DNA of 64,000 nucleotides from Myxococcota bacterium (GTDB lineage: Bacteria > Myxococcota_A > UBA9160 > UBA6930), in the NCBI GenBank assembly GCA_965223415.1, contig OZ245002.1:3264001-3328000 (forward strand). Reading direction: 5' to 3'. Below the pieces are notes generated by a model, which did no database searches, was not told the origin of the DNA, and saw only the letters and a program-made list of their open reading frames with translations. Positions within the stretch are counted from its first letter, which is position 1. Every line of letters begins with the position of its first letter. A program made the translations under genes and the position numbers. Positions 22,972 to 41,881 of the stretch are shown piece after piece.

Positions 22972-23040
22972 AGAAAATCGTCCCTTCGCTGCGACGATCT
23001 TCGCGTCTCTCGCGAACAGGGCTGCGAGGAGGACGATTCG

Positions 23041-23586: not shown

Positions 23587-23589
23587 CGC

Positions 23590-23654
23590 CTAGCAGGCTG
23601 CGGAAGAACGCCGATGGTACGCAGAGAACGGTGCCTTGGAGGCGCTTTGGCTAG
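23590..23654. repeat. 65-bp direct repeat copy 1 (orphan IS5 end bounded by CTAG sites)
   Basis: Identical to 24865-24929. Confidence 0.9.
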
Positions 23655-24868: not shown

Positions 24869-26159
24869 CAGGCTGCGGAAGAACGCCGATGGTACGCAGA
24901 GAACGGTGCCTTGGAGGCGCTTTGGCTAGGAAAGGAGCGCGGAATCGAGGCCTTGCCGCCGGTTGACGCCCGGCTCGCTGCCAACGGGGCCCTCCACTCG
25001 ACCCGACAAGCTACGTGGGGCATAGCAGGTTCCTCATCCTCACAAGGTTGTAGGCCGCCTGGGTGAACGTGAACATCCAGCCCACCCGCTCCTTGCCGCG
25101 ATGCTTCACCTTGCGAATCGGGCCTACCGTCTTCCCCCAGCCGAAGACCTGCTCGATCGCCTTGCGTTTGCGCTGGCTGATCTCGTAGCCCACGTGCGTC
25201 GTCGTTCGATCATCGATCGCGCTGCGGCGGCCCTTGTCGTTCTGCGCAACGTGCGGGGTCACGCCCAGCTCTCGAAGCTCTTCGACATGCGACACCGTGT
25301 CGTAGCCCTTGTCTCCGCCCAACGTCGATCGCCGTCCGCGTGGCACCCGCTTCACCATCGCCACCGAGGCCTCGCGCTCCGCCGTGCCCGTGGCCAGCGT
25401 CGTCTTGGCCGCCACCACCAGGCCATGCCGGTTCTCCGTCACCACGTGGCCCATGAAGCACAGCTTCGCTTCCTTCCCCTTCCCCTTGCGGTAGAGCCGG
25501 GACTCCGGGTCCGTCGTCGAGGCGTGCGTGTCGTTCTTCCTACGCTCACCGTGGAAGTCCCGCTCCGTCGCCTTCCGTCCACCCCCGCGGCCGCCCCGGT
25601 CCTCGTCCTTCGGCCGAAAGCTCTTCTGCCCCGCCCATGCCTCGATCAGCGTGCCGTCCACCGTGAAGTGCTCGTCCGACAGAAGCCCCTCCTCGCGGGC
25701 CTCCGCCAACACGGCCTGAAAGAACCCCTCCGCGATCTCTCCCCGAAGCAACCGATCCCGATTCTTCGTGAACACCGTCACGTCCCAGACCCGGTCGTCC
25801 ATCTCGAGCCCCACGAACCAGCGGAACAGCAGGTTGTACTCGAGCTGCTCCATCAGCATCCGCTCGCTTCGCACCGAGTAGAGCACCTGCAGCAGCAGGG
25901 CCCGCAACAGGTGCTCGGGCGGAATCGACGGCCGACCCGTCCGCGAGTACAGCTTCCGCAACCTCCCGTCCAGCCGGACCAGGGCGCGATTCGTCATCTC
26001 CCGCGTCACGCGCAGTGGATGATCGGCGGGGACACGCGCCTCCGGCGACACGTAGCTGAACATCGTGGACTGCGTTCGATCGGTTCCGCGCATCTCCATC
26101 CCCCCGGTATGCCTGTACCAACCGATTCGACCCGTCGCACGGGGTTTTTCCGCAGCCTG
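24869..26159. mobile_element. IS5-family insertion sequence with CTAG target duplication
   Basis: IRs CAGGCTGCGGAAGAACGCC and GGGGTTTTTCCGCAGCCTG (2 mismatches); CTAG at 24865-24868 and 26160-26163. Confidence 0.9.
25011..26093 (-). CDS. IS5-family transposase
   Basis: MFSYVSPEARVPADHPLR, GRPSIPPE, YNLLFRWFVG, HFTVDGTLIEAWA, GDKGYD, IEQVFGWGK. Confidence 0.95.
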   Translation of the reverse strand: MRGTDRTQSTMFSYVSPEARVPADHPLRVTREMTNRALVRLDGRLRKLYSRTGRPSIPPEHLLRALLLQVLYSVRSERMLMEQLEYNLLFRWFVGLEMDDRVWDVTVFTKNRDRLLRGEIAEGFFQAVLAEAREEGLLSDEHFTVDGTLIEAWAGQKSFRPKDEDRGGRGGGRKATERDFHGERRKNDTHASTTDPESRLYRKGKGKEAKLCFMGHVVTENRHGLVVAAKTTLATGTAEREASVAMVKRVPRGRRSTLGGDKGYDTVSHVEELRELGVTPHVAQNDKGRRSAIDDRTTTHVGYEISQRKRKAIEQVFGWGKTVGPIRKVKHRGKERVGWMFTFTQAAYNLVRMRNLLCPT

Positions 26160-26239: not shown

Positions 26240-26962
26240 GTGATCTACGGGGTCCGGTACTTCCTGATCGTGGTCTACACCGTGCTGTGGGGAACGCTCG
26301 GCAGCGCCATGGCGTTCTTCGACCGGGAAGGGCGCTTCACCTGCTGGGTGGCGCGAAGCTGGATCCGTTGGGTGGTCGTGACCTGCGGCGTGCGCATCCA
26401 GTGCGAGGGGCTCGAGAACTTCGATCACGAGCGACCCTTCGTGCTGATGACGAACCACCAGAGCGTCTTCGACATCGCTGCCATCGTGCTGACCCTTCCC
26501 ACGGAGTTCCACTTCGTCGCCAAGAAGGAGCTGGCCTACATCCCCTTCTTCGGATGGGCCCTCGCGTGGTCCGGCGTCGGCGTCATGGTGGACCGCAGCA
26601 ACCACGACCGCGCCGTCGCGAGCCTCAAGGCCGCCGCCGAGCGGGTCCGCGGCGGCGCCCGCGTGATCATCTTCCCGGAAGGCACGCGCAGCCCGACCGG
26701 CGAGCTCCAGGCCTTCAAGAGCGGCGGCTTCCACCTGGCGATCCAGGCCGGCGTGCCGATCGTTCCCGCCACCGTCTCGGGCACCTTGAAGGTCACGCCG
26801 CGGCGAAGCCTGCGGGTGGACAGCGGCACGATCAAGATCGTCTACGGCAAGCCCATCGAGACCGAGGGCCTCGACACCGATGCCCGCAGCGCGCTCAAGG
26901 ACCGGGTGCGTGAGGCGATCCAGGCGGGCTTCGACTGGGAGCTGCAGGCGCCGGCGGGCTAG
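26240..26962 (+). CDS. plsC: 1-acyl-sn-glycerol-3-phosphate acyltransferase
   Basis: NHQSVFD and IFPEGTRS motifs. Confidence 0.9.
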   Translation: MIYGVRYFLIVVYTVLWGTLGSAMAFFDREGRFTCWVARSWIRWVVVTCGVRIQCEGLENFDHERPFVLMTNHQSVFDIAAIVLTLPTEFHFVAKKELAYIPFFGWALAWSGVGVMVDRSNHDRAVASLKAAAERVRGGARVIIFPEGTRSPTGELQAFKSGGFHLAIQAGVPIVPATVSGTLKVTPRRSLRVDSGTIKIVYGKPIETEGLDTDARSALKDRVREAIQAGFDWELQAPAG

Positions 26963-27212
26963 AGCCCCTCTCGCGACTCCTCCCGTCGCCAGGCACGCGC
27001 CTGCAGCCTCCCGGCCGCGTTGCGCTCCCTGCGCCGTGGGCTCCGCGACGCCTCGGTCGCCCGCCTTGTCAGGAGGCCGCAGGCGCGCACCTGGCTCGGT
27101 CCGGATTCGTGGGGTGGGCTCAAGGACGCTGCCCTCGGAGGCGTGCTTGCCGACGCCCCCCGGCCGACTACGCTTGCTTCATTGCCCGTCCCACGGGGTG
27201 AGGGACTCGGGA

Positions 27213-29630
27213 ATGGCCGAGGCTGCGCGCGGATCGCGCCGCAGGAAAAGACGAAGCGGGCGTGCCCGCCGCTCCGGGAGGGGCGCCATCGAGACCGTCG
27301 GCCGCGAGATCGCGGGCGTCGCGCTGGTCGCCCTCGCCCTGCTGGCGGGTATCGCGCTCATCACCTACGACGCCGCCGATCCGATCGGCGTCTGGCAGCC
27401 CGTTCACAACGGCGGTGGCGTGGCCGGCGCCACCGTCGCCGGGCTGCTGGTGCGGGCGATGGGCGCCGGTGCGGCGGTTCCGGTGGCGGGGCTGCTGCTG
27501 CTCGGCCTCCGCCTGCTCCTGCCCGGGACGATCCAGCTTCCGGCCACGCGCTTCTGGGTCGGGGCGGCGCTCCTGCTCCTCTCCCTCTCCGCCCTGCCGG
27601 AGCTGCTGGCCTCCCTGGCGCCGCACCTGGCGGTGGGGAGCGGCGGCTGGCTCGGGGGGATCCTGGCACCCGCCGAGCGCATGCTGCTCTCGGGCCCCGG
27701 GGCGCTCGCCCTGAACGCGCTGGCCCTCCTGGTGGGTGTGCTCGGGGTGGTGGGGGTTCCGCCGGGCGTGGCCCTCGCCCGGCTCGGACGCGGCGCCGCC
27801 CTCGCGGCCCAGCGGACCGGGGCAATCCTCGCAGGCGGGCTGGCCGCCGCCCGGGAGGCGACCGGGCGGGCGGGGCGCCGGCTGGCGCGGTTTCCCGCGG
27901 CCTTCACCGTGTGGCGGGAGCAGCGCGCCCGGCGCGCCCGGCGTCACTCGAGGGAGGAGGCTCCGGAGACGCAGATCGCCGACGCGCCCGTGCCGGCGGA
28001 AGCGCTGCCGGCCCCGGAGCTGCCGAAGCCGCCCCGGGCCAAGAAGGGCGCTCCGCCGGACATCGTCGACCACCGCGACCGGCGCAAGCCGGAGCCGGAG
28101 CAGGAGGCCTTCACCTTCTCGGAACGGACCTCCTTCGGCCCCTACACGCCGCCGGACGTGTCCGAGATCTTCCAGGCGCCGCCGGCGGGCGGGCGCCGCT
28201 ACGACCGCGACAGCCTGATCATGAACTCGCGGATCCTCGAGAAGAAGCTCGCCGATTTCGGGGTGAACGGGCGCGTGGTGACGGTGCACCCGGGTCCGGT
28301 GATCACGATGTACGAGTTCGAGCCCGCACCCGGGGTCAAGGTCAACCGCATCACGAACCTGTCGGACGATCTGGCTCTCGCGCTGCGGGCGCTCTCGATC
28401 CGCATCATCGCGCCGATTCCCGGCAAGTCCGTGGTCGGTATCGAGGTCCCGAACCCGGACCGCGAGGTCGTCTACATCCGCGACCTGCTCGAGTCGAAGT
28501 CGTTCCGGAGCGGTGGCTCCAAGCTCACCCTGGCCCTCGGCAAGGACATCTTCGGCAACCCGGTCGAGGGCGATCTGGCGGTGATGCCCCACCTGCTGGT
28601 GGCCGGCGCCACCGGTACCGGCAAGAGCGTGTTCCTGAACTCGCTCCTGTGCTCGATCCTCACCCGCGCCACGCCCGACGAGGTGAAGCTCCTGCTCGTC
28701 GATCCCAAGCTCCTCGAGCTGTCGATCTACGAGGGCATTCCGCACCTGATCGCCGAGGTGGTGACCCAGCCGAAGCGCGCGGCGGCGGCGCTCCAGGGCA
28801 TCGTCCAGAAGATGGAGGAGCGCTACCAGATGATGGCGGCGCTCGGCGTGCGCAACATCCGCCAGTACAACGCGCGGGTCGAGGAGGCCCTCGCGGAGGG
28901 CGAGAAGACCTTCCGGCTGAAGCCGCTGCCCGGCGAGGAAGAGGGCCGCGAGGTCGAGTACCAGACCATCCCCTACATCGTCGTGGTGATCGACGAGCTG
29001 GCGGACCTGATGGTCGTGAGTGCGCGCGACGTGGAGGAGAGCCTCCAGCGTCTGGCCCAGATGGCGCGGGCCGCCGGCATCCACCTGGTGCTCGCGACCC
29101 AGCGTCCGAGCGTCGACGTGCTGACCGGCATCATCAAGGCGAACTTCCCCTCGCGCATCTCCTTCCAGGTCTCGTCGCGCACCGATTCCCGGACCGTCCT
29201 CGACCAGGGCGGCGCCGACGCCCTGCTCGGCCAGGGCGACATGCTGTTTCTGCCGCCCGGCACCTCCAAGATCCAGCGGCTGCACGGCTCCTACGTCTCC
29301 GAGAAGGAGGTGACCGAGCTCGTCCGACATCTCCGCGCCCAGGGAGCGCCGAAGTTCGACGACGATCTCGTGCGCCTCGAGGCGTTGGCCGACGCGGGCG
29401 AAGGCGGAATGCCCGATGAGGAGGCGGACGAGCACTACGACCTGGCGGTTCAGATCGTCGCCGAGACGCGCAACGCCTCCATCTCCTACATCCAGCGGCG
29501 GCTCAAGGTCGGCTACAACCGGGCGGCGCGGATGATCGAGCAGATGGAGCGCGAGGGCGTCGTCGGGCCGCAGATCGGCACCCGTCCCCGCGAGGTCTTC
29601 GTCCAGCAGCTCGGCGGCGAGGAGGAGTGA
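27213..29630 (+). CDS. ftsK: DNA translocase FtsK
   Basis: N-terminal TM region, MPHLLVAGATGTGKSV, IDELADLM, ATQRPSVD, gamma domain SISYIQRRLKVGYNRAAR. Confidence 0.97.
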   Translation: MAEAARGSRRRKRRSGRARRSGRGAIETVGREIAGVALVALALLAGIALITYDAADPIGVWQPVHNGGGVAGATVAGLLVRAMGAGAAVPVAGLLLLGLRLLLPGTIQLPATRFWVGAALLLLSLSALPELLASLAPHLAVGSGGWLGGILAPAERMLLSGPGALALNALALLVGVLGVVGVPPGVALARLGRGAALAAQRTGAILAGGLAAAREATGRAGRRLARFPAAFTVWREQRARRARRHSREEAPETQIADAPVPAEALPAPELPKPPRAKKGAPPDIVDHRDRRKPEPEQEAFTFSERTSFGPYTPPDVSEIFQAPPAGGRRYDRDSLIMNSRILEKKLADFGVNGRVVTVHPGPVITMYEFEPAPGVKVNRITNLSDDLALALRALSIRIIAPIPGKSVVGIEVPNPDREVVYIRDLLESKSFRSGGSKLTLALGKDIFGNPVEGDLAVMPHLLVAGATGTGKSVFLNSLLCSILTRATPDEVKLLLVDPKLLELSIYEGIPHLIAEVVTQPKRAAAALQGIVQKMEERYQMMAALGVRNIRQYNARVEEALAEGEKTFRLKPLPGEEEGREVEYQTIPYIVVVIDELADLMVVSARDVEESLQRLAQMARAAGIHLVLATQRPSVDVLTGIIKANFPSRISFQVSSRTDSRTVLDQGGADALLGQGDMLFLPPGTSKIQRLHGSYVSEKEVTELVRHLRAQGAPKFDDDLVRLEALADAGEGGMPDEEADEHYDLAVQIVAETRNASISYIQRRLKVGYNRAARMIEQMEREGVVGPQIGTRPREVFVQQLGGEEE

Positions 29631-30412
29631 GGCGCTCCTGCGGGCTGGCGCTCGCCGGCGCCCTGGCCTGGGTGCTGGCGGCGAGCTCCGCTGCCGGCGG
29701 CGACCCGGCGGCACCGCCCGCGGAACCGCCTGCGGAGACTGCGGCGCCGCCCGCGGCACCGCCCGCGGAGACTGCGGCGCCGCCCACACCGACCGCCGAA
29801 CCCCCGGCGGACGGTGCGGCGTGCGCGGAGGCAGCGGCCGGCAGGGTGCAGAGCTACTACGACGACGTGCAGGACCTGGCGGCCGCGTTCCGCCAGACCA
29901 GCCGCAGCGTCGCCTTCGGAGGCGCAGCGGGTCCGGACCAGCTCGCCGCCGGCCGGGTCGAGTTCGCGAAGCCGGGCAAGATGCGCTGGAGCTACACCGA
30001 GCCGGAGCCCAGCGAGGTCGTGAGCGACGGCTCCACCCTCTGGATCTACGACCCGGCGGCGAAGGAGGTGCAGGTCCTCGAGGTGGGGGAGGCCTTCCTG
30101 TCCGCCGCCGCCATCCAGTTCCTGCTCGGCTCCGGCCGGATCCTGGAGACCTTCTCGGTCGCCGCGCGAGATTGCGCCGCCTCGCCGCTGCAGCTCGTGC
30201 TGACGCCGAAGCAGCCCGCCAGCTACGAGCGTCTCGAGCTCCATGTCGATCCCCAGAGCGGCGTGATCGCCCGCACCGTCGTGCTGGATCTGCTCGGCAA
30301 TCGCACCGAGGTGGCCTTCGACGATCTCGAGACGAACCGCTCGCCGCCGGCGGAGCGGTTCGTCTTCCAGGTGCCGGAAGGCGTTCGAGAGCTCCGGCTT
30401 CCCGGGCGCTGA
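29627..30412 (+). CDS. lolA: Outer-membrane lipoprotein carrier protein LolA
   Basis: KPGKMRWSY..P....VSDG..LWIYDP; canonical ftsK-lolA order; Pro/Ala-rich repeat after the signal peptide. Confidence 0.9.
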   Translation: MRRSCGLALAGALAWVLAASSAAGGDPAAPPAEPPAETAAPPAAPPAETAAPPTPTAEPPADGAACAEAAAGRVQSYYDDVQDLAAAFRQTSRSVAFGGAAGPDQLAAGRVEFAKPGKMRWSYTEPEPSEVVSDGSTLWIYDPAAKEVQVLEVGEAFLSAAAIQFLLGSGRILETFSVAARDCAASPLQLVLTPKQPASYERLELHVDPQSGVIARTVVLDLLGNRTEVAFDDLETNRSPPAERFVFQVPEGVRELRLPGR

Positions 30413-30760
30413 GTTCGATCACTCGGTTGGCGGCAGCACGCCGAATTGCGGGCCGGTGCGCAGCCGGTGCGCAATCCGCCCTCCCCGTGCTCAGTTCGGG
30501 AAGAGCGTCTCCACGCTTCCGCTGTCCCTGCAACGGCGCGCGTAGCGTCGGCGGAGCGACACCAGCGTCAAGAACACGGCGTCGCGACGGCGCAGCGATG
30601 CCTCGCGGAGCGGCACCCGGGGGGCAGCTTCCAGCGGAATTCCGCTCGCGGAAAGGGGTTTGTCCGGGCCCTTCCCCGGGGTCTTCGCCCTGCGGGTGGG
30701 TGAAGGAAGGGAAGCGGCGTGGCGGCGCGGACCTGGGCGCTCGCTTGCACACGCGAGTGC

Positions 30761-30788
30761 TTGACACCCCTGGGGCCTGTCCTATGCT
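30761..30788 (+). promoter_or_regulatory. Putative sigma70 promoter for the proteasome operon
   Basis: TTGACA (30761-30766), 16-nt spacer, TATGCT (30783-30788). Confidence 0.6.
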
Positions 30789-31111
30789 CGATCGGTGAAA
30801 ATGCACGTGAAAACAAGGGGTTCGGGGATTTTGATGCACCCCCCGGGCCGACCCGCGGCGGGGCGCAATGGGTGTGCGGGTCACCCGCATGCGAGCGTCC
30901 ATCGCCGCGAGGGCGAAGCCGAAGCGCCGGCGCACGGGGCTGCCACTTCCTCTTCGATGAGGCGACGCCCCCTCGCACCTGCCGGTCCCCTCCCGCGTTC
31001 CTCTCGCTTCGACGCACCGACCCCCCGGGCGGCCTCCGGGCCGCGGCATGGGCTTTGCAGTCTCCCGGAGCAGCTCCGTGGTGGGCACGGAGTCAACCAG
31101 GAGAGGGCGCA

Positions 31112-32974
31112 ATGAGCGAGTTCGAATCCGATGGTGGCCGGCGGGGTCTCATGAGAGACGTCATGCGACGGATCTCCCCGAACGGTCCCCGCCCCGGAGA
31201 CGAGGACTCGCAGGCGTCCACGGAAGCGGAAACGGAGCGTGGGCAGGCGATGGCACGATCCCTTCACGACGAGATCGAAGACCTTCGAGAGGCGCTGCGC
31301 TTCTTCGGAGGGGACTCGGCGGAGTTCCGCCGCCGGCTCGATCGGCTGCTCGCCGAGTACGAGGCGATCCGTCGCCGGTTCCATCTCACGCGCGACCAGC
31401 TGACCGACGCCGAGCGGCAGAACGAGAAGCTGGTCGGCACGCTGCAGGAAGCCAAGCAGCAGATCGAGCTCCTCAAGGAGGAGGTCGACAAGCTGTGCGC
31501 CCCGCCGAACGGCTACGGCGTCTTCCAGCGCTCCAACAAGGACGGCACTGCCGAGATCGTCGTCGACGGCAAGTCGATGCGCGTCAACGTGCATCCGAAC
31601 GTCGACACCTCCCACTTCGAGGAGGGGCAGCTCGTCGTCCTGAACGAGGCCTTCAACATCGTCGAAGGTGCCGGCTTCACGGCGCGTGGCGAGATCATGT
31701 CGATCGTGGACATGCTGGGCGACGGCCGCGCCGTCGTGCTCGGCCACACCGACGACGAGCGGGTCGTGACCCTCTCGGACCCGCTGCGCCGGGAGCGCCT
31801 CAAGGTCGGCGACCACATCCTGGTCGATCCGCGCACCCAGTATGCCTTCGAGAAGATGCCGAAGTCGTCGGTGGAAGAGGTGGCCCTCGAAGAGGTCCCC
31901 GACATCACCTACGACCGCATCGGCGGCCTCGGCGAGCAGGTCGAGATCCTGCGCGACGCGATCGAGCTGCCCTACCTGCACCCGGACATCTTCGCGGAGC
32001 ATAAACTCTCGCCGCCGAAGGGCATCCTGCTCTACGGCCCTCCGGGCTGCGGCAAGACCCTCATCGCGAAGGCGGTGGCGAACGCCCTGGCCAAGCGCAT
32101 CGAGGAGCGGACCGGTCGCGAGACGCCGGCCTACTTCCTCAACGTGAAGGGCCCGGAGCTCCTCAACAAGTACGTCGGCGAGACCGAGCACAAGATCCGC
32201 GAGGTCTTCAAGCGCGCGCGAGAGAAGGCCAGCGAGGACGTGCCCGTCGTGATCTTCTTCGACGAGATGGACTCGCTCTTCCGCATGCGCGGCTCCGGAA
32301 TCTCCTCGGACATGGAGGCCACCGTGGTGGCCCAGTTCCTCTCGGAGATCGACGGCGTCGAGTCGCTGAAGAACGTGATCGTGATCGGCGCCTCGAACCG
32401 GCAGGATCTGATCGATCCCGCCGTGCTGCGCCCCGGCCGCCTCGACCTGAAGGTCAAGGTGAACCGCCCGGATCGCGAGGCTGCCTACGAGATCTTCACC
32501 AAGTACCTGGTGGAGGACCTGCCCTTCCACGCCGATTCCGAGCAGCGCTACGGAAGCGATCCCTCGAAGATCGTCGACGGCATGATCCGCGACACCATCG
32601 ACGACATGTACAACACGGGCGAGGACAACAAGTTCCTCGAGGTGACCTACGCCAAGGGCGAGCGCGAGATCTTCTACTTCAAGGATTTCGCCAGTGGCGC
32701 CATGATCGAGAACATCGTCGCCCGCGCCAAGAAGATGGCGGTGAAGCGATTCATCGACCACCAGGAGCGCGGGATCCGGGTGAACGACCTGAAGCAGGCC
32801 GTCCAGGACGAGTTCAAGGAGAACGAGGACCTCCCGAACACGACCAACCCGGACGATTGGGCGCGCATTTCCGGCCGCAAGGGCGAGCGCATCATCAACG
32901 TCCGCACCCTGATCAGCGGGATCAGCCGCAAGGAGCGGTCGATCGAGAACATCGATTCCGGTCAGTACCTGTAG
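31112..32974 (+). CDS. arc: Proteasome-associated AAA+ ATPase ARC/Mpa
   Basis: Coiled coil NEKLVGTLQEAKQQIELLKEEVDKLCAPP, Walker A GPPGCGKT, KGPELLNKYVGETE, Walker B FFDEMD, LPNTTNPDDWARISG, C-terminal GQYL; AGGAGA RBS. Confidence 0.97.
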   Translation: MSEFESDGGRRGLMRDVMRRISPNGPRPGDEDSQASTEAETERGQAMARSLHDEIEDLREALRFFGGDSAEFRRRLDRLLAEYEAIRRRFHLTRDQLTDAERQNEKLVGTLQEAKQQIELLKEEVDKLCAPPNGYGVFQRSNKDGTAEIVVDGKSMRVNVHPNVDTSHFEEGQLVVLNEAFNIVEGAGFTARGEIMSIVDMLGDGRAVVLGHTDDERVVTLSDPLRRERLKVGDHILVDPRTQYAFEKMPKSSVEEVALEEVPDITYDRIGGLGEQVEILRDAIELPYLHPDIFAEHKLSPPKGILLYGPPGCGKTLIAKAVANALAKRIEERTGRETPAYFLNVKGPELLNKYVGETEHKIREVFKRAREKASEDVPVVIFFDEMDSLFRMRGSGISSDMEATVVAQFLSEIDGVESLKNVIVIGASNRQDLIDPAVLRPGRLDLKVKVNRPDREAAYEIFTKYLVEDLPFHADSEQRYGSDPSKIVDGMIRDTIDDMYNTGEDNKFLEVTYAKGEREIFYFKDFASGAMIENIVARAKKMAVKRFIDHQERGIRVNDLKQAVQDEFKENEDLPNTTNPDDWARISGRKGERIINVRTLISGISRKERSIENIDSGQYL

Positions 32975-33009
32975 GAGGATCTCGCGTCCCCGCGGCGCCA
33001 GGCACGTTT

Positions 33010-34494
33010 ATGGCGATTCCGAAGGTGATGGGGACCGAGATCGAGTACGGGATCACGGTCAAGAACGACCGGGACTTCGATCCGATCTCGAGCTGCGTGC
33101 TGCTGGTGAACGCCTACCGCGAGGAGCGGGTGGCGAAGATCCTGTGGGACTACGACCAGGAGAACCCGCTGGCGGATGCCCGCGGCTTCCAGGTCGACGG
33201 CGAGAAGTACACGCCGAACCAGCAGGAGAACATCGCCCGCAACAAGACCCTCGAGAACGGTGCCCGCTACTACGTGGACCACGCGCACCCCGAGTACTCG
33301 TGCCCGGAGGTGACCAATCCCCACGAGCTGGTCGTTCACGAGAAGGCCGGCGAGCGGATCGTCGAGTTCTCGCGTCGCGAGGCCACGGCCCTGCTGCCCG
33401 AGGGCACGCAGATGCTGCTCCACAAGAACAACAGCGACCACAAGGGAAACAGCTACGGCTCCCACGAGAACTACCTGATGGACCGCCGGACGTCCTTCAA
33501 GCAGATCGTGGAGCACCTGATGCCGTTCTTCGTGAGCCGTCAGGTCTACACCGGCGCCGGCAAGGTGGGCAGCGAGAACCGGGCCCAGCCCTGCGACTAC
33601 CAGCTCTCCCAGCGGGCCGATTTCTTCGAGACCGAGGTCGCCCTCGACACGATGGTGAAGCGGCCCATCATCAACACCCGCGACGAGCCCCACGCCGATC
33701 GCGAGAAGTACCGGCGCCTCCACGTGATCGTGGGCGACGCGAACATGAGTGAGTACACGATCTACCTGCGCCAGGGCGCCACGGCGATCGTGCTGGCCAT
33801 GATCGAGGACGGCGCCATCGACCGGGATCTCTCGCTCCGCGACCCGGTACGGGCGATCAAGGAGGTCTCCCACGATCGCAGCTGCGCCCGCGAGGTCGAG
33901 CTCGCCACCGGCAAGAAGATGAGCGCCGTGCAGATGCAGCTCGAGTACCTGGAGATGGCCCGGAAGTACTGCGGGACGAGGGAGGTCGGCCCCTGGGCCG
34001 GGGACGTGCTCCAGAAGTGGGGCGAGGTGCTCGACGCCCTCGAGCGCGACCCCCTGGAGCTCGCGGACCGCATCGACTGGGTGATCAAGCAGGTGATGAT
34101 CGAGCGCTTCATGGAGCGGAAGTCGCTCGCGTGGGGTGATCCCCAGGTGCAGCTGCTCGACCTGCAGTACCACGACCTTCGCCCCGAGAAGGGCCTGTAC
34201 TATCTTCTCGAGAGACAGGGTCAGGTGGAACGGATCGTGACGGACCAGGAGATCACGAAGGCGATTACCGAGCCGCCCGAGGACACGCGGGCCTACTTCC
34301 GCGGACAATGCCTGAAGCGCTACGGCGAGGAGGTGTTCGGCGTCAACTGGGACTCGATCTCGTTCGGCATCGGAGACGAGCCGATCAAGCGGGTCCTGAT
34401 GGCGGAGCCGCTCAAGGGCTCCAAGCAGCACGTCGACGACCTGCTCGACCGCTCCTCCAGCGCAGCCGAGCTCGTCAAGAACCTTCGCGCCTGA
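33010..34494 (+). CDS. dop: Pup deamidase/depupylase Dop
   Basis: GTEIEYG, Dop-loop WDYDQENPLADARG, NGARYYVDHAHPEYS, SYGSHENY, RPIINTRDEPHAD, RRLHVIVGD. Confidence 0.93.
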   Translation: MAIPKVMGTEIEYGITVKNDRDFDPISSCVLLVNAYREERVAKILWDYDQENPLADARGFQVDGEKYTPNQQENIARNKTLENGARYYVDHAHPEYSCPEVTNPHELVVHEKAGERIVEFSRREATALLPEGTQMLLHKNNSDHKGNSYGSHENYLMDRRTSFKQIVEHLMPFFVSRQVYTGAGKVGSENRAQPCDYQLSQRADFFETEVALDTMVKRPIINTRDEPHADREKYRRLHVIVGDANMSEYTIYLRQGATAIVLAMIEDGAIDRDLSLRDPVRAIKEVSHDRSCAREVELATGKKMSAVQMQLEYLEMARKYCGTREVGPWAGDVLQKWGEVLDALERDPLELADRIDWVIKQVMIERFMERKSLAWGDPQVQLLDLQYHDLRPEKGLYYLLERQGQVERIVTDQEITKAITEPPEDTRAYFRGQCLKRYGEEVFGVNWDSISFGIGDEPIKRVLMAEPLKGSKQHVDDLLDRSSSAAELVKNLRA

Positions 34495-34548
34495 TCGATC
34501 GCCAGGAGTATCCTCGCTTCTCGCCTGCCCCCCGCCAGGAGACATCCC

Positions 34549-34830
34549 ATGATTCGCCGAACCGAACGACGGAACGACTTCGGAAACGAAGCCGACGCGG
34601 AGCTGCTGCTCCGCACGGCCCACGCCGCCGAGAGCACCCAGAAGCAGAAGACCGGAGACGGCGGCGGCGACGAGGGCGGCGAGAAGGCCGGCGACGGCAG
34701 CAAGAAGCTCGCCAAGAAGGGCGAGGCCCTGAAGGAAGAGATGGACGCCCTCGTCGACGAGATCGACGAGGTCCTCGAGGAGAACGCCGAGGAGTTCGTG
34801 AAGAACTACGTCCAGCGCGGGGGCGAGTAG
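34549..34830 (+). CDS. pup: Prokaryotic ubiquitin-like protein Pup (C-terminal GGE)
   Basis: DALVDEIDEVLEENAEEFVKNYVQRGGE; lies between dop and prcB; AGGAGA RBS. Confidence 0.97.
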   Translation: MIRRTERRNDFGNEADAELLLRTAHAAESTQKQKTGDGGGDEGGEKAGDGSKKLAKKGEALKEEMDALVDEIDEVLEENAEEFVKNYVQRGGE

Positions 34831-34873
34831 GCCGCTTCCCGTCCGACACCATCACGCACACCGGGGGGGTTCC

Positions 34874-35668
34874 GTGCGGTTCTGGGATGGATACAAGGGC
34901 AGCAGCTTCATGGAGCTGCTCGACGTCGACTTTCCGCAGCTGAAGCCCGACGTCGGCGCTTGGCTGGCGAGCAGTGGGGAGATGCCGGAGACGGCTCACG
35001 GCACCACCTGCGTGGCGCTGCGCTTCGGCGACGGCGCCCTGGTGGCCGGTGATCGTCTCGCCACCATGGGCCACCAGGTGGCGAATCGCGACATCGAGAA
35101 GGTCTACGCCACCGACGACTTCTCGCTCATGGCGATCGCCGGTGCCGCCGGCCCCGCCATCGAGATGGCGCGGCTCCTCGGCATCCAGTTCGAGCACCAC
35201 GAGAAGATCGAGGGCGAGCCCCTCGAGCTCGAGGGCAAGGCCAACACCCTGGCCTCGCTGATCAAGCAGAACCTCCCGGCGGCCATGCAGGGCCTGGTGG
35301 TCGTGCCGCTCTTCGCCGGCTACGACCGGCGCCGCCGGACCGGGCGCGTCTGGAAGTACGAGGTGACCGGCGGCCGCTACGAGGAGCTCGAGTTCGACAG
35401 CATTGGCTCCGGCTCGATCTTCGCCAAGGAATCCCTCAAGAAGTCGTACGCCTCCGGCGCGAGCCGCGAGGAGGCGATCCGCATGGCCATCCAGGCGCTC
35501 ACCGACGCCGCCGACGAGGACACGGCGACCGGCGGCGTCGACCTGCACCGGCAGATCTTCCCCCGCGTGAAGCTCGTGGGTTCCCGGGGCGTGGATGAGG
35601 TGGGTGACGAGGAGATCGCCCAGGTGTACCAGGGCGTCATCGACGCCCGCCGCCGGCCGGGAGCGTAG
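34874..35668 (+). CDS. prcB: 20S proteasome beta subunit
   Basis: 43-aa propeptide with SSFMELL, autocleavage site HG/TT (Thr at nt 35003), AGDRLATMG, GSGSIFAK, DEDTATGG. Confidence 0.96.
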   Translation: MRFWDGYKGSSFMELLDVDFPQLKPDVGAWLASSGEMPETAHGTTCVALRFGDGALVAGDRLATMGHQVANRDIEKVYATDDFSLMAIAGAAGPAIEMARLLGIQFEHHEKIEGEPLELEGKANTLASLIKQNLPAAMQGLVVVPLFAGYDRRRRTGRVWKYEVTGGRYEELEFDSIGSGSIFAKESLKKSYASGASREEAIRMAIQALTDAADEDTATGGVDLHRQIFPRVKLVGSRGVDEVGDEEIAQVYQGVIDARRRPGA

Positions 35669-35670
35669 TC

Positions 35671-36363
35671 ATGTCCTTTCCGTTCTACGTCAACCCGGAG
35701 CAGATGACCCAGGACAAGGCCGAGTTCGCCCGCAAGGGCATCGCTCGGGGCAAGTCCATCGTCACCGTCGAATACGACCAGGGCGTCGTGATGGTGGCCG
35801 AGAACCCGACCCGGCTGCACAAGCTGGGCGAAGTCTACGACCGGGTGGCCTTCGCCGGCGTCGGCAAGTTCAGCGAGTTCGATCGTCTCCGGAAGATGGG
35901 CGTGCAGTGGGCCGACGTGGAGGGCTACCGCTTCAGCCGCGACGACGTGCGCGGCAAGGCCCTGGCCAACGTCTACTCCCAGATCCTGGGCGAGGAGTTC
36001 AGCCGCTCGATGAAGCCCTTCGAGGTGGAGATCGTGGTGGCCGAGGTCGGCGATCCGGAGCTCGTGGGCCACGAGAACAACGCGCTCTTCAAGATCGGCT
36101 TCGACGGCACCGTCCAGGACCAGGAAGGCTTCTGCGTGATCGGCGGCTCCGAGGGCAACCTCCAGAACCACATGCAGTCGAACTACCGGGACGGCCTCGA
36201 CCTCGCGCAGGCCCTTGCCCTCGGGCGTGAGGCGCTCCAGCGGGCCGAGAACGGCACGCCGGACCTGCCGGCCAAGAGCCTCGAGGTCTGCGCGCTCGAT
36301 CGCAGCCGCCCGGGTCGCAAGTTCAAGCGGCTCACCACCGAGGAGGTGGCCGGGCTCATCTAG
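35671..36363 (+). CDS. prcA: 20S proteasome alpha subunit
   Basis: MSFPFYVNPEQMTQDKAEFARKGIARGKS, YDRVAFAGVGKFSEF, KPFEVEI. Confidence 0.96.
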   Translation: MSFPFYVNPEQMTQDKAEFARKGIARGKSIVTVEYDQGVVMVAENPTRLHKLGEVYDRVAFAGVGKFSEFDRLRKMGVQWADVEGYRFSRDDVRGKALANVYSQILGEEFSRSMKPFEVEIVVAEVGDPELVGHENNALFKIGFDGTVQDQEGFCVIGGSEGNLQNHMQSNYRDGLDLAQALALGREALQRAENGTPDLPAKSLEVCALDRSRPGRKFKRLTTEEVAGLI

Positions 36364-37232
36364 GCGCCGGCCGTCCGTCCCTTCAGGTAGGCGTAGCCCG
36401 CCCTCGCCGTGGCGAGCGGATCGGGCGCCGTGTCATGCTCGACGAAGTAGTGGCGGAGCCCGGCCTGTCCGGCCCGGGCGAAGATCGCCTCGAAGGGCAC
36501 CGTGCCTTCGCCCGGGTCGACGAAGGTGCCGTCCGCCAGCACATCCTTCACGTGGCAGACGGGGAAGCGTCCCGGGAAGCGGGCGAAGGCCGGCAGCGGA
36601 TCGAAGCCCGCCGCCTTCGCCCAGCCGAGATCGATTTCCAGGCGCACCCGCTCCGGATCCGTCTCCTCGAGGATCACGTCGTAGGGGAGGCGGCCCTCCA
36701 CCGGCGTGAACTCGAAGTGGTGGTTGTGATAGCCGAAGACGAGGCCGGCCTTCGAGAAGGCCTCGCCCATGGCGTTCAGCTCAGAGGCGATCGCCTTCCA
36801 GTCGTCGAGGGAGAGGTCGGTGCGGATGCGCCACTCGCCCTTCTCCTGGTAGACGACCTGGCGCGGCGCCGAGAGGAAGACGTACCTCGCGCCCAGGGCG
36901 TGGGCCGCTTCGATCTCCTGCTCCGGCGGACCCTCCAGGTGCGTCGACGGCGCGCGCAGGCCGAGGCCGTCGAGCATTGACCGGATCTCGCCGGGAGCGT
37001 GACCGGCGCGTCCGGAGACCTGCACCTCCCGGTAGCCGATCGCCGCGACCTTCTCGAGGGTGCCGCGGTAGTCCTTCGCCAGGAGCTCTCGCAGGGTGTA
37101 GAGCTGGAGTCCGGGCTCGATCGGGGTCTCGGTGGATGTCATGGCGGCTCCTGGGCCGAGGGCCGCGCTCCCGGCACCGAGCGCAGCCGCGGTATGCAGG
37201 AAGTGCCGCCGGGTGAAGCCTCGATCGCCCAC
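36360..37232 (-). CDS. Tat-exported sugar phosphate isomerase/epimerase (xylose-isomerase-like TIM barrel)
   Basis: TRRHFL twin-arginine signal, GLQLYTLR, GYHNHHFEF, EIDLGW, HVKD, YFVEHD. Confidence 0.9.
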   Translation of the reverse strand: MGDRGFTRRHFLHTAAALGAGSAALGPGAAMTSTETPIEPGLQLYTLRELLAKDYRGTLEKVAAIGYREVQVSGRAGHAPGEIRSMLDGLGLRAPSTHLEGPPEQEIEAAHALGARYVFLSAPRQVVYQEKGEWRIRTDLSLDDWKAIASELNAMGEAFSKAGLVFGYHNHHFEFTPVEGRLPYDVILEETDPERVRLEIDLGWAKAAGFDPLPAFARFPGRFPVCHVKDVLADGTFVDPGEGTVPFEAIFARAGQAGLRHYFVEHDTAPDPLATARAGYAYLKGRTAGA

Positions 37233-37353
37233 GAGAGCGACGCTACCGCCTCCCCGCGGGGCCGGCCAGTCCCGCGGAACGCACCGAAAGCTCCCGGCCG
37301 TACCTGCCGATAGAGGAAGGGCTACATTGGCCCTCCGGACCGGGTGGGAGCGC

Positions 37354-38760
37354 GTGCAGAAGCGAATCTACGGAGTCGAGACCGAGTACGGGATCATCTT
37401 CACCCCTGAGGGGCGGAAGACCCTGCCGGTCGAGAAGGCGATCCGCTTCCTGTTCGAGAAGCTGATCACCACGGAGCACTTCCTGAACGTGTTCCTGGAG
37501 AACGGCGCGCGCTTCTACCAGGACACGGGCTGTCACCCGGAGTACGCGACGCCGGAGTGCGCCTCGCCCCGCCAGCTGATCGTCTACGACCGGGCCGGCG
37601 AGCGGATCCTGGAAGACCTCCAGGACTATGCCGAGGAGAAGATCCGCGAAGAGCGGATCGCCGGAAAGCTCTCGATCTTCAAGAACAACACCGACTTCGT
37701 CGGGAACTCCTACGGCTGCCACGAGAACTACCTCGTCGACCGCGACGTGGACTTCTACTACCTGGCCGAGCAGCTGATCCCGTTCCTGGTCACCCGCCAG
37801 ATCTACACCGGCGCGGGCAAGGTCTTCCAGACCCAGGACGGCGTGCACTACTGCATCAGTCAGCGCGCCCAGCACATCTACCAGAAGATCTCGGGCACGA
37901 CGACGAACGACCGCTCGATCATCAACACTCGCGACGAGCCCCACGCCGACCGGGAGCGCTATCGGCGCCTCCACGTCATCGTCGGTGATTCGAACATGAG
38001 CGAGTACACGAACTTCGTGAAGATCGGCTCGTGTGCGGTGGTCCTCCAGATGATCGAGGACAACTACATCAACAAGGACTTCACGCTCCGCAACCCGGTC
38101 AAGGCGATCAAGGACATCTCCTACGACACGACCTGCAAGCGGAAGCTGCGCCTCGACAACGGGCGCGAGTACTCGCCCATCGAGATCCAGCGCGAGTACT
38201 GCGAGATGGCCCAGAAGTACATCGAGCAGTACCCGGTTTCCGACGAGCTCAAGGAGAGCGTCGGCATGTGGCAGTACGTGCTCGACTGCCTCGACGACGA
38301 TCCCAACAGGCTCGACCGCAAGATCGACTGGGTAATCAAGCGCCGGCTGATCGAGAGCTACGTGGAGCGCCACGGCTCCCGCTGGAGCGATCCGCGGGTA
38401 TTCATGCTCGACCTCCAATACCACGACATCCGCGTGAGCCGCGGCCTCTACTACCTCCTCGAGCGCAAGGGCGCGGTGGATCGCATCCTGAACGACGAGG
38501 AGATCATCAAGGCCAAGACCGAGCCGCCCCCGGACACCCGGGCGCGGATGCGCGGCGAGTTCATCAAGCTCGCGCGCCAGAACGGCATCCAGTACGACCT
38601 GGACTGGTCGAACATCCGGCTCGGCAACCTGCTCAACGTCCGCGTGATCTGCAACAATCCCTTCGAGACGGACACGGAGAAGGTGGCCGAGCTGGTGCGC
38701 ACGATCCAGAAGACGAACCTGCGCAAGACCAGCCTGTCGAAGCTAGTGATCCAGTCTTGA
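37354..38760 (+). CDS. pafA: Pup--protein ligase PafA
   Basis: RIYGVETEYG, NVFLENGARFYQDTGCHPEYATPEC (no Dop loop), GNSYGCHENY, SQRAQHI, IINTRDEPHAD, TRARMRGEFI. Confidence 0.95.
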   Translation: MQKRIYGVETEYGIIFTPEGRKTLPVEKAIRFLFEKLITTEHFLNVFLENGARFYQDTGCHPEYATPECASPRQLIVYDRAGERILEDLQDYAEEKIREERIAGKLSIFKNNTDFVGNSYGCHENYLVDRDVDFYYLAEQLIPFLVTRQIYTGAGKVFQTQDGVHYCISQRAQHIYQKISGTTTNDRSIINTRDEPHADRERYRRLHVIVGDSNMSEYTNFVKIGSCAVVLQMIEDNYINKDFTLRNPVKAIKDISYDTTCKRKLRLDNGREYSPIEIQREYCEMAQKYIEQYPVSDELKESVGMWQYVLDCLDDDPNRLDRKIDWVIKRRLIESYVERHGSRWSDPRVFMLDLQYHDIRVSRGLYYLLERKGAVDRILNDEEIIKAKTEPPPDTRARMRGEFIKLARQNGIQYDLDWSNIRLGNLLNVRVICNNPFETDTEKVAELVRTIQKTNLRKTSLSKLVIQS

Positions 38761-39372: not shown

Positions 39373-40407
39373 ATGCTCGACGCCATTGCCGGCCTGTTCA
39401 GTAGCGACCTGGCCATCGATCTGGGCACGGCCAACACCCTGGTCTACGTGAAGGGCAAGGGCCTGATCTGCTCGGAGCCGTCGGTCGTCGCCGTGGCGAA
39501 GGACTCGAGCGGTCGCGGCGACAAGGTGCTGGCGGTCGGCCACGAGGCCAAGGAGATGCTCGGCCGCACGCCCGGCGGCATCCGCGCCATCCGCCCGATC
39601 AAGGACGGCGTCATCGCCGACTTCGAGATCACCGAGGCGATGCTCCGCTACTTCATCCAGCGCGCCCACAACCGGCGCAAGCTGGTCCGCCCGCGCATCG
39701 CGATCTGCGTGCCGCCCTGCATCACCAGCGTCGAGAAGCGCGCGGTGCGCGAGAGCGCGCTCAGCGCCGGCGCCCGCGAGGTGTACCTGATCGAGGAGCC
39801 GATGGCGGCGGCGATCGGCGCCGGCCTCGACGTGACGGCGGCGACGGGCAACATGGTCGTCGACATCGGCGGCGGCACCACCGACGTCGCAGTGATCTCG
39901 CTCTCGGGCATCGTCACCAGCCGATCGATCCGCTGCGGCGGCGACGCCATGGACGACGCCGTCGTCAACTACGTGAAGCGCAAGTACAACATGCTGATCG
40001 GCGAGCGTACCGCCGAAGGCTGCAAGGTGAACATCGCCACGGCTTCGCCGACGGCGAAGACCGAGACGATGGAGATCAAGGGCCGCGACCTCGTCGCCGG
40101 CATCCCGAAGGTCGTCGTCACGACCAGCGAGGAGATCCGCGAGGCGCTGCTCGAGCCGATCGGCCAGATCGTCGAGACCGTCCACCTCACCCTCGAGCGC
40201 ACCCCGCCGGAGCTGGCCGCCGACATCGTCGACCGCGGCATCATGCTCGTTGGCGGCGGCAGCCTGCTGAACGATCTCGACCAGGTCCTCCGCCAGGAGA
40301 CCAAGCTCCCGATCCTGCGCAGCGAGGATCCCTTCACGGCAGTGGTCCACGGCGCCGGCCGCGCGCTGGACAATCTGGACCTGCTGAAGGAAGTGGCGAT
40401 CCAGTAG
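39373..40407 (+). CDS. mreB: Rod shape-determining protein MreB
   Basis: AIDLGTANT, RPIKDGVIADF, IEEPMAAAIGAG, VVDIGGGTT, TPPELAADI. Confidence 0.97.
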   Translation: MLDAIAGLFSSDLAIDLGTANTLVYVKGKGLICSEPSVVAVAKDSSGRGDKVLAVGHEAKEMLGRTPGGIRAIRPIKDGVIADFEITEAMLRYFIQRAHNRRKLVRPRIAICVPPCITSVEKRAVRESALSAGAREVYLIEEPMAAAIGAGLDVTAATGNMVVDIGGGTTDVAVISLSGIVTSRSIRCGGDAMDDAVVNYVKRKYNMLIGERTAEGCKVNIATASPTAKTETMEIKGRDLVAGIPKVVVTTSEEIREALLEPIGQIVETVHLTLERTPPELAADIVDRGIMLVGGGSLLNDLDQVLRQETKLPILRSEDPFTAVVHGAGRALDNLDLLKEVAIQ

Positions 40408-40465: not shown

Positions 40466-41881
40466 GTGCTGTTCACCCAGTCGACGTTCTTCCTGTTCTT
40501 CGGCCTCGTCTTCGCGGGGGCGTGGGCTCTTCCCGGCCATCGGCTCCACAAGCTCTGGCTCCTCGGAGCGAGCTACGCCTTCTATGCGGGCTGGGACTGG
40601 CGGTTCCTGGGGCTCATCCTGCTCTCGACGGGCGTGGACTACGTCGCGGCCCAGCGCATCCACCACGGCCCGACGCCCCGGGCGAGGCGCGCCTGGCTGG
40701 TTGCCAGCCTCGTGGCGAACCTCGGCATCCTGTTCACGTTCAAGTACCTGGACTTCTTCGCCGCCTCGGCGGCGGCGCTGCTCGAGGCCCTGGGCGCGAC
40801 CGCGAGCTGGACGACGCTCCACCTGGCGCTCCCGGTCGGGATCAGCTTCTTCACCTTCCAGTCGATGAGCTACACGATCGACGTCTACCGGCGTGAGCTC
40901 GCCCCCCATCGCAGCCCGTTGGACTTCGCGCTGTTCGTCGCCTTCTTCCCGCAGCTCGTGGCAGGCCCGATCGTGCGCGCCCGGGACTTCCTCCCGCAGC
41001 TCCGTGAGCGGCCGCGGCTCTCGGCGGTGCCGGTGCGCGCGTGTCTCACGCTCTTCTGGATCGGCTTCTTCAAGAAGGCCTGCGTGGCCGACAACCTGGC
41101 GCTCTGGATCGACCCGGTCTACGCGGAGCCGGCCGCCCACACGGCGGGAGCGCTGGTCGGTGCCGCCTGGCTCTACGCCGTGCAGATCTATTGCGACTTC
41201 TCGGGCTACTCGGACATGGCGATCGCCACCGCCGGCCTGCTCGGCTACCGCCTTCCGCGCAACTTCGCCGCGCCCGCCTTCAGCGTGTCCGTCACCGAGT
41301 TCTGGCGCCGCTGGCACATCTCCCTCTCGAGCTGGCTGCGCGACTACCTCTACATCCCCCTCGGCGGCAACCGGCGCGGAGCGGGCCGCACGCGGCTGAA
41401 CCTGATGGCGACCATGCTCCTCGGCGGGCTCTGGCACGGAGCCGCCTGGACCTTCCTGCTCTGGGGCGCGCTCCACGGGCTCGCCCTGATCCTGCACCGG
41501 GTGTGGCGGGAGCTCGTGGGCACCCGCCGGGCTCCGGGTCGTCTGCGACCCCTCGCCCGGCTGGCCGCCATGGCGCTCACCGCCTGGTGGGTGGTCTTCG
41601 CCTTCGTCTTCTTCCGGGCGGAGAGCCTGCCCGACGCCGCCGTGGCTGCGCGCGCCTTCGTTACCTTCGCCTCGCCCGGGTCGGCGGGCCTGCCCGCCAG
41701 CCCCTGGCCGGTGCTCGCGCTGCTGATCGCGGTCCACGCCCTGTGCTGGAGGTTGCGGCCGGAGGAGCGGGTGGAGGCGCTGCCGCCCGCGGCCTTCGCG
41801 CCCGCCTACGGACTGGCCTGGAGCCTCGCCCTGCTCTGGATCCCGCTCGAGGCGCGACCCTTCATCTACTTCCAGTTCTGA
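40466..41881 (+). CDS. MBOAT family O-acyltransferase (AlgI/PatA-like)
   Basis: LPVGISFFTFQ, FFPQLVAGPI, YCDFSGYSD, FWRRWHISLS, GLWHGA, C-terminal FIYFQF. Confidence 0.93.
   Translation: MLFTQSTFFLFFGLVFAGAWALPGHRLHKLWLLGASYAFYAGWDWRFLGLILLSTGVDYVAAQRIHHGPTPRARRAWLVASLVANLGILFTFKYLDFFAASAAALLEALGATASWTTLHLALPVGISFFTFQSMSYTIDVYRRELAPHRSPLDFALFVAFFPQLVAGPIVRARDFLPQLRERPRLSAVPVRACLTLFWIGFFKKACVADNLALWIDPVYAEPAAHTAGALVGAAWLYAVQIYCDFSGYSDMAIATAGLLGYRLPRNFAAPAFSVSVTEFWRRWHISLSSWLRDYLYIPLGGNRRGAGRTRLNLMATMLLGGLWHGAAWTFLLWGALHGLALILHRVWRELVGTRRAPGRLRPLARLAAMALTAWWVVFAFVFFRAESLPDAAVAARAFVTFASPGSAGLPASPWPVLALLIAVHALCWRLRPEERVEALPPAAFAPAYGLAWSLALLWIPLEARPFIYFQF

Follow-up and report, generated by a model that had tools for sequence, protein, structure and literature searches.

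A complete Pup-proteasome gene cluster in the core genome of an uncultured, diderm, Myxococcota-labelled lineage

Does a Gram-negative, Myxococcota-labelled bacterium own a working Pup-proteasome system, or has its genome merely received one from elsewhere? The question is raised by a stretch of 64,000 nucleotides (nt) of contig OZ245002.1 (assembly GCA_965223415.1, labelled Myxococcota bacterium), called the window below, which carries the six genes arc, dop, pup, prcB, prcA and pafA. In passages of Barandun et al. 2012 (PMC3511204) and Hecht et al. 2020 (PMC7947786), Actinobacteria and Nitrospirae are the groups in which the system is conserved; sporadic hits in draft genomes of other phyla, Proteobacteria included, are read there as transfers from Actinobacteria. 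From the evidence given below, the locus very probably encodes a Pup-proteasome system that is functional and passed on vertically in a Myxococcota-labelled lineage of uncultured diderms. In this large clade, with at least 80 species-level genomes that hold PafA relatives, the complete system belongs stably to the core genome, is strongly conserved and appears to be under host-type regulation.

The six genes are all located on the plus strand, none of them contains an internal stop codon, and their order, arc-dop-pup-prcB-prcA and, after an interruption, pafA, is the order expected of a Pup-proteasome system. PMC3511204 describes this gene order as rigidly conserved. The genes of the window are as follows:

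31112..32974, plus strand: arc/mpa, proteasomal AAA+ ATPase, 620 amino acids (aa); TIGR03689, PF17758, PF16450, PF00004
33010..34494, plus strand: dop, depupylase/deamidase, 494 aa, ATG at 33010; TIGR03688
34549..34830, plus strand: pup, ubiquitin-like tag, 93 aa, ATG at 34549; PF05639, TIGR03687
34874..35668, plus strand: prcB, 20S beta subunit, 264 aa; TIGR03690
35671..36363, plus strand: prcA, 20S alpha subunit, 230 aa; TIGR03691, residues 1-229
37354..38760, plus strand: pafA, Pup ligase, 468 aa, GTG start at 37354; TIGR03686, PF03136

As family tests for all six proteins, we used the NCBIfam equivalog cut-offs and the Pfam models, and every protein scored above its equivalog cut-off. Arc reached 744.7 bits with TIGR03689 (cut-off 504.75) and matched both OB Pfam domains and the AAA domain, Dop reached 587.1 bits with TIGR03688 (cut-off 492.3), and Pup scored 56.3 with TIGR03687 (cut-off 41.45) and 66 with PF05639 (cut-off 27). 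The two core subunits were recovered with 296.7 bits for PrcB (TIGR03690, cut-off 191.9) and 279.2 bits for PrcA (TIGR03691, cut-off 139.05), and PafA gave 509.5 bits with PF03136.

The structure alignments covered Arc, Dop, Pup, PrcB and PafA, and for all five the match to solved actinobacterial structures extends over most of the protein or the whole of it. Arc has a coiled coil, two OB domains, a Walker A motif GPPGCGKT, a Walker B motif DEMD and a YVG pore loop, and its residues 67-620 align with the Mpa chain 7px9 up to the C-terminal GQYL, which is the docking motif of Mpa/ARC. Residues 5-492 of Dop align with residues 3-499 of Dop 4b0r, including the Dop-loop region that PafA lacks, and the trees place Dop in a clade separate from PafA, which is about 37 residues shorter ahead of the shared core. 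Residues 2-449 of PafA align, with short gaps only, with the soluble PafA 4b0t, and the catalytic Asp is kept in YQDTGCHPEY as in 4b0t, whereas the variant chain 4bjr has Asn there. PrcB starts with a 43-aa propeptide ending in HG ahead of TT, with a predicted cleavage between Gly43 and Thr44; Thr44 aligns with residue 1 of the mature chains 1q5q and 2fhg, and Asp17 and Lys33 of the mature numbering are present. Finally, residues 31-93 of Pup align with the Pup of 3m9d and 7px9, and the protein ends in FVKNYVQRGGE.

The gene models were checked at their starts. An in-frame extension of 131 codons upstream of arc (from 30719) was rejected as non-coding, as its G+C content at third codon positions (GC3) is 0.62-0.74 versus 0.93 within arc; in Arc relatives, the alignment begins at residue 1 of the 620-aa protein. 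The sequence AGGAGA stands 7 nt before the pup ATG, and the GTG start of pafA yields 468 aa, the same length as in most of the database relatives listed. A preliminary description of this locus had called all six genes intact, and so they are, at the same coordinates and with the catalytic and docking motifs kept. It had also given the six genes in their correct order, but it had overlooked a minus-strand TIM-barrel gene between prcA and pafA.

For the comparison with related loci, we scanned one genome per species (185,579 species) for PafA, which resulted in 411 pattern matches, 299 of them encoding a relative. The best 80 of these 299 loci, in which PafA is 79-94% identical, were studied. 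All six genes are present in 68 of the 80 loci (69 if the prcA of L021 is counted), and the remainder are cut by contig ends. In each of the 11 loci that lack arc, the contig breaks off within the cluster; prcA was found in 80/80. The genes that flank the cluster in the window are:

26880..29630, plus strand: ftsK, upstream flank; Pfam/NCBIfam match
29627..30412, plus strand: lolA, upstream flank; Pfam/NCBIfam match
39373..40407, plus strand: mreB, downstream flank; PF06723, 478.6 bits

The complete row of nine genes, ftsK-lolA-arc-dop-pup-prcB-prcA-pafA-mreB, occurs in 52/80 loci and is collinear in 52/52, the cluster having there the place between ftsK-lolA and mreB that was first described. 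Upstream, ftsK was found in 62/80 loci and lolA in 63/80, the absences falling at contig ends except in L002, which has different genes upstream of arc. Downstream of pafA, mreB was found in 68/80 loci; it is missing from the 2.5-10 kb available in L013, L018, L021, L025, L036, L046 and L060, and five more loci are cut by contig ends. Further common flanks are plsC upstream (16 loci) and yceG and ruvX downstream (57 and 53 loci, respectively).

All of these 80 loci except L025 are titled as metagenome-assembled genomes, and no named species in culture is among the sources. The taxon labels differ: 37 are labelled Myxococcota, Myxococcales or Myxococcaceae, 24 Deltaproteobacteria or 'delta proteobacterium', 14 Spirochaetales or Spirochaetaceae, and 5 carry other names. 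The three Spirochaete-labelled loci that were sampled (L046, L060 and L068) are mixed with Myxococcota-labelled genomes in the trees. As loci with different labels intermingle in the trees and have their flanks in common, we take the labels to be inconsistent naming of a single uncultured lineage. The full set of Spirochaete-labelled loci is L006, L010, L015, L033, L034, L038, L040, L041, L046, L049, L057, L060, L068 and L073. One Spirochaete-labelled isolate name contains MYXO.

Co-divergence was assessed in the window and 35 loci (36 genomes) with seven complete proteins, Pup being excluded. The distances of Arc, Dop, PrcB, PrcA and PafA follow those of FtsK and MreB with a Mantel r of 0.90, a value reached by 0 of 2000 permutations. 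The mean pairwise identities were 77.2% for Arc, 76.6% for Dop, 65.5% for PrcA and 64.1% for PrcB, and these values, with those of the other three proteins, indicate strong purifying selection. The most conserved protein of the block is PafA, at 89.9%, versus 82.8% for MreB and 62.0% for FtsK. The functional residues are retained as well: T1, D/E17 and K33 of PrcB in 73/73 relatives, the catalytic motif of PafA in 80/80, the active-site motif of Dop in 69/69, and the GQYL tail of Arc in 62/69, with GQYV in 4 more.

The surroundings of the cluster place it on a core chromosome of a host with an outer membrane. The latter follows from the presence of LolA (TIGR00547, 120.2 against a cut-off of 112), BamD (TIGR03302, 192.3 against 81.4) and PilT (TIGR01420, 485 against 319.1), and the former from RecA and AlaS, both encoded in the window, together with FtsK, MreB, YceG and RuvX. 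Of the diderm neighbours named in the preliminary description, lolA, bamD and pilT were matched, but DUF1844 was not found in any of the open reading frame (ORF) translations of the window that were scanned, the scan being non-exhaustive. The G+C content of the window is about 71%, and the total G+C of the cluster (0.65-0.69) lies below that of its flanks (0.71-0.75). However, the six genes have a GC3 of 0.88-0.95, level with the 0.90-0.96 of ftsK, lolA and mreB, as the claim of host-like codon usage had implied, so the dip sits in codon positions 1 and 2; it reflects amino-acid composition and not foreign codon usage. The same description had noted no adjacent integrase or insertion sequence (IS), which is right for the immediate neighbours but leaves out three IS transposase genes 5-12 kb upstream, outside the conserved plsC-ftsK-lolA block:

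19093-20493: ISNCY transposase gene
23729-24868: IS630 transposase gene
25011-26099, minus strand: IS5 transposase gene

The region 19093-26099, just before the plsC-ftsK block, holds two genes for extracytoplasmic function (ECF)-type sigma factors in addition to these three genes and has a lower G+C content (0.64-0.68).

The region upstream of arc contains one further element that is kept across the clade:

31045..31059, plus strand: sigma-54-type -24/-12 motif GGCATGGGCTTTGCA, with GG-N10-GC geometry, 67 nt before the arc ATG

We aligned the 260 nt upstream of arc from 62 genomes with MAFFT, and in this unsupervised comparison, CGGCA-N6-TTGCA was the only conserved block besides the ribosome-binding site and start codon. 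The copy in the window, GGCATGGGCTTTGCA, is the sole match to GGCA-N6-TTGCW in the 64 kb, where chance gives a mean of 0.34 and at least one match was obtained in 27 of 100 shuffles. From 61 loci with enough upstream sequence, 57 have the exact motif on the same strand, 63-177 nt (mostly 67-82) upstream of arc, and the remaining four have one-mismatch variants 85-98 nt upstream. Over both strands of 1.17 Mb of loci, 57 of the 67 matches fall at this position. The sigma-54 consensus is given in a passage of PMC12316311 as TGGCAC-N5-7-TTGCT, with GG at -24 and GC at -12, and the GG and GC dinucleotides of the motif match its spacing. Furthermore, the parts of PMC3162934 and PMC12316311 that bear on the subject describe Actinomycetota as effectively without sigma-54 and Myxococcota as rich in its activators. 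From the spacing and this distribution, we infer transcription by sigma-54; as a promoter of this type needs an enhancer-binding activator, the operon appears to be transcribed from a sigma-54-dependent promoter under the control of such a protein. The lolA-arc spacer (30413-31111) is itself unusually long (700 nt in the window; median over 63 loci, 786 nt) and has no coding signature.

Within the clade, Pup varies at both ends. The last 26 residues are nearly invariant across the clade, and the 74 Pup sequences end either in GGE (42) or in GGQ (32). Lengths of 84-100 aa were found for 56 of the 74, short forms of 66-68 aa for 10 and other lengths for 8. The long form starts at an ATG with a GGAG-like site before it, 15-60 nt past the dop stop, and has an N-terminal extension of approximately 25-30 residues with a basic start and a hydrophobic patch. 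The Pup of the window is of the long form, with an extension of about 30 aa. Thus, both GGE and GGQ ends and both long and short forms coexist in one clade.

Two genes next to pafA call for a separate account:

36360..37232, minus strand: xylose-isomerase-like TIM-barrel protein, 290 aa; PF01261, 54.6 bits
38783..39208, plus strand: small conserved ORF, 141 aa; GC3 0.87, position kept after pafA

The TIM-barrel gene has a host-like GC3 of 0.90, and its product gave a weak match to the TAT signal (17.8, below the cut-off). No tblastn match to this gene was obtained in any of the 80 related loci. An MBOAT/DltB-like acyltransferase gene directly after mreB (40466-41881, plus strand) was found in only 1/80, where it lies elsewhere and on the other strand. 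Given these counts, 0/80 and 1/80, both genes are local insertions. The TIM-barrel gene is a lineage-specific insertion outside the Pup-proteasome system, and it splits pafA from the operon. Elsewhere, the gap between prcA and pafA has a median of 55 nt, so that pafA normally closes the operon; with an opposite-strand gene in between, the pafA of this genome would have to possess a promoter of its own. Inserts of 0.9-1.9 kb occur at the same prcA-pafA junction in L008, L012 and L058. An ORF at 36435-36980 on the plus strand was rejected as an antisense artefact of the TIM-barrel gene, as it matched no family and its GC3 is 0.73.

The product of the small ORF after pafA has an RPHLVA-like motif in its N-terminal part, a single hydrophobic stretch and a C-terminal half that resembles a coiled coil. 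Under a strict filter, a profile search placed the ORF behind pafA in 49 of the 79 loci that were eligible; in about 8 others, the called ORF overlaps pafA. This search was restricted by position, as the unrestricted iteration drifted onto alternative-frame ORFs within pafA. The ORF has no Pfam or NCBIfam match and, in the ESM Atlas, falls in with unnamed clusters only, with scores of at most 0.88. Behind pafA, neither pafB nor pafC nor a bpa-like gene was seen; this small membrane-type ORF and then mreB stand there instead.

How the system would work can be proposed from homology with the mycobacterial and corynebacterial system. PafA, with ATP, would activate the gamma-carboxylate of the C-terminal Glu of Pup and ligate it to substrate lysines; as the Pup of the window already ends in GGE, no deamidation would be needed here. 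Dop would remove Pup and, in the members with a GGQ end (32/74), also deamidate it, a role that part of the clade must need given these ends. The Arc hexamer would bind Pup through its N-terminal coiled coils, thread it through the OB rings and the AAA pore and unfold the substrate, docking on the alpha ring by the C-terminal GQYL. The 20S core of PrcA and PrcB, after self-removal of the propeptide at Gly43-Thr44, would then degrade the substrate at the Thr1 sites of PrcB. Expression would probably be gated by a sigma-54 activator.

Could the cluster instead be a recent horizontally acquired island, or a chimera, made in assembly or binning, of actinobacterial DNA and a Gram-negative contig? 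The cluster's reduced total G+C, the IS transposase genes 5-12 kb upstream and the preference for transfer from Actinobacteria to other phyla in a passage of PMC7947786 would suit either origin. However, the dip in G+C is absent from GC3, and the IS genes lie beyond the conserved block. Additionally, the lolA-arc and pafA-mreB junctions recur in independent assemblies, with full collinearity in 52/80 loci, which excludes the breakpoints at 30.4-31.1 kb or 38.8-39.3 kb that the preliminary description had considered. The system also co-diverges with FtsK and MreB, and the nearest PafA from outside is 62% identical, the nearest actinobacterial group (Acidimicrobiia) being at 48%. Synteny, co-divergence and kept motifs together exclude a chimera or recent island in favour of vertical descent under purifying selection, and we regard a chimeric or recently acquired cluster as scarcely credible. 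The earlier wording 'old, domesticated' fits this outcome, in view of the constant location (52/80), the Mantel r of 0.90, the host-like GC3 and the conserved sigma-54-type motif.

A second alternative accepts the intact genes but assigns them mainly to a reversible regulatory modification, or the proteasome mainly to Pup-independent work, and not to tagging and degradation. Pupylation without a proteasome does occur in some Actinobacteria and in Plesiocystis, according to passages of PMC2588565 and PMC3511204, and PafA is far more conserved in the clade (89.9%) than PrcA and PrcB (~65%). Against this, the ATPase, both 20S subunits and Pup are linked in one cluster in all 68-69 loci long enough to tell, Arc keeps its docking tail and PrcB its catalytic triad (73/73), and no alternative proteasome activator was seen in the window; we therefore hold this alternative to be improbable. 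The doubt is somewhat larger for the promoter, although we still think it unlikely that the GGCA-N6-TTGCW element is the binding site of another regulator or an RNA element. Neither rpoN nor an activator gene lies in the window, the motif being what the sigma-54 reading stands on, and 48 of 60 copies have C immediately ahead of GG, where the consensus has T. A k-mer search upstream of the motif found nothing convincing as a conserved enhancer site, and a sigma-70-like site, TTGACA-16-TATGCT (10 of 12), is also present in the lolA-arc spacer at 30761-30788. On the other side stand the exact spacing and invariant positions of the sigma-54 consensus (as in the passage of PMC12316311), the fixed orientation and narrow distance from the start codon in 57/61 loci, and an Rfam search that gave no RNA family at the element.

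In addition to observations on the promoter, several points weigh against a functional, vertically inherited system. Every enzymatic step is deduced from homology and the use of sigma-54 from the motif, as opposed to the gene content, motifs, synteny, co-divergence and promoter motif, which are read from the sequence itself, and the hosts are all uncultured. PafA passes its equivalog cut-off narrowly, by 5 bits (TIGR03686, 556.4 against 551.3), and the tail of Arc has unrelated residues in 3/69 relatives. In L004 (~4500-7800), the matches to arc and dop are split over several frames. These frameshifts and the aberrant Arc ends are probably assembly errors, and could be decay. Lastly, the choice of loci by PafA hides those members of the lineage that do not have the system.

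Two tRNA calls complete the description of the window. A tRNA-Gln at 63610-63684 (plus strand) is given by both ARAGORN and Rfam. A tRNA-His call by ARAGORN at 58197-58267 (minus strand) is unconfirmed by Rfam and overlaps the start of an amine-oxidase-like ORF.

We then considered the wider relationships of PafA by searching 1.84 billion representative proteins, which gave 6503 relatives at E values of at most 0.001. Among the full-length ones outside the own group, P0005 ranks first at 62% identity, and the next are at most 48% identical. Close relatives of P0005 include two records named candidate division KSB3. Another group, of 464 aa and ~63% identical, contains one Candidatus Entotheonellaceae record and a near-identical one with the conflicting label Saccharimonadia, and P0008 (48% identical) groups with Ilumatobacteraceae and Acidimicrobiales records. 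In the maximum-likelihood tree of PafA (LG+G4, 43 rows, rooted with Dop, most rows without a taxon label), the Myxococcota-labelled clade is supported with 100/100, and the joining of the KSB3 group with the Entotheonellaceae group with only 81/79. The Acidimicrobiia and further unlabelled representatives, excluding the Myxococcota-labelled clade, are joined with 99/97, and the base of PafA is without resolution. The Dop tree matches this picture, with a support of 98 for the clade and P0016 as its sister. Both trees had been proposed in the preliminary description, and both set the Myxococcota-labelled clade apart.

The preliminary description had also called the system probably uncharacterised, and the literature agrees so far as it was searched. 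The full-text search found no paper describing a Pup-proteasome system in this Myxococcota-labelled clade, nor a proteasome in Entotheonella. One supplement of PMC7947786, as one part of that work, has no mention of Deltaproteobacteria, Myxococc*, KSB3 or Entotheonella, and the portion seen of a 2026 preprint (bioRxiv 10.64898/2026.04.10.717840) names only Actinomycetota and Nitrospirota. Public annotation already names relatives Pup--protein ligase or PafA2 family. The machinery itself is thus already known, and no new kind of machinery is revealed; the novelty lies in how stably and widely it occurs in this clade of uncultured diderms, in the promoter of sigma-54 type, in the extended form of Pup and in the KSB3/Entotheonellaceae affinity.

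A broader reading can be put forward only tentatively. The Myxococcota-labelled clade and its KSB3- and Entotheonellaceae-labelled relatives might form an old 'diderm-type' branch that is not nested in the sampled actinobacterial PafA, is inherited vertically in the core genome beside cell-division and cell-shape genes, and has features of its own in sigma-54/enhancer control, the extended Pup and possibly the small membrane-anchored partner. If this were true, an actinobacterial invention with a few late, sporadic transfers would be too narrow a picture, and regulated pupylation would be used by hundreds of uncultured diderm species. The clade also provides a comparison set for the universal features of pupylation, such as the last 26 residues of Pup and a PafA that is ~90% identical clade-wide. 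Moreover, it offers a testable link between sigma-54 signalling and regulated proteolysis, and it is a source of soluble, non-pathogen proteins for biochemistry.

Among the systems that resemble this one, the closest in sequence outside the clade are the KSB3- and Entotheonellaceae-labelled PafA proteins (62-66% identical, 467 and 464 aa). They likewise belong to Gram-negative candidate lineages and form separate clades in the tree, with labels that rest on 2, 1 and 1 named records. A Pup homologue called UBact has reportedly been found in several Gram-negative phyla, together with PafA/Dop-like enzymes and a proteasome, by Lehmann et al. in 2017. The Pup of the window differs in that it passes the cut-offs of the Pup models themselves and ends in QRGGE. 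The name UBact is mentioned in passing in a passage of PMC11354881, and literature searches for it gave nothing else of relevance. In Nitrospirae/Nitrospirota (Leptospirillum), a complete system is likewise present in a Gram-negative phylum and regarded as conserved there (passages of PMC7947786 and PMC3511204), and the host lineage differs.

For the deltaproteobacteria (now Myxococcota), the only occurrence of Pup and a PafA homologue described earlier is of the Plesiocystis pacifica/Rhodopirellula type, to go by the relevant passage of PMC2588565. In that passage, Iyer, Burroughs and Aravind 2008 report Pup and a ligase in the deltaproteobacterium Plesiocystis with no linked proteasome genes, and the ligase of this type carries a four-helix transmembrane insertion. 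In contrast, the 468-aa PafA of the window has no such insertion and aligns with the soluble 4b0t, and the proteasome genes are adjacent to it; it is therefore not a ligase of the membrane-anchored type.

The actinobacterial system, known from Mpa-Dop-Pup-PrcBA-PafA of M. tuberculosis, PafA of C. glutamicum and Dop of Acidothermus, has the same six components in the same order. Common to both are the GQYL tail, the GG[EQ] end of Pup, Thr1/Asp17/Lys33 of PrcB, the catalytic Asp of PafA and the Dop loop. However, the host here is a diderm (LolA, BamD), its PafA is at most 48% identical to that of the nearest actinobacterial (Acidimicrobiia-labelled) group, its Pup is mostly of 84-100 aa and N-terminally extended, and it has a putative sigma-54 promoter, whereas Actinomycetota lack sigma-54. 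The difference between the two systems is one of embedding in the host: the location between ftsK-lolA and mreB, the apparent sigma-54 promoter and the mostly extended Pup and, in this genome only, the inserted opposite-strand gene that parts pafA from its operon.

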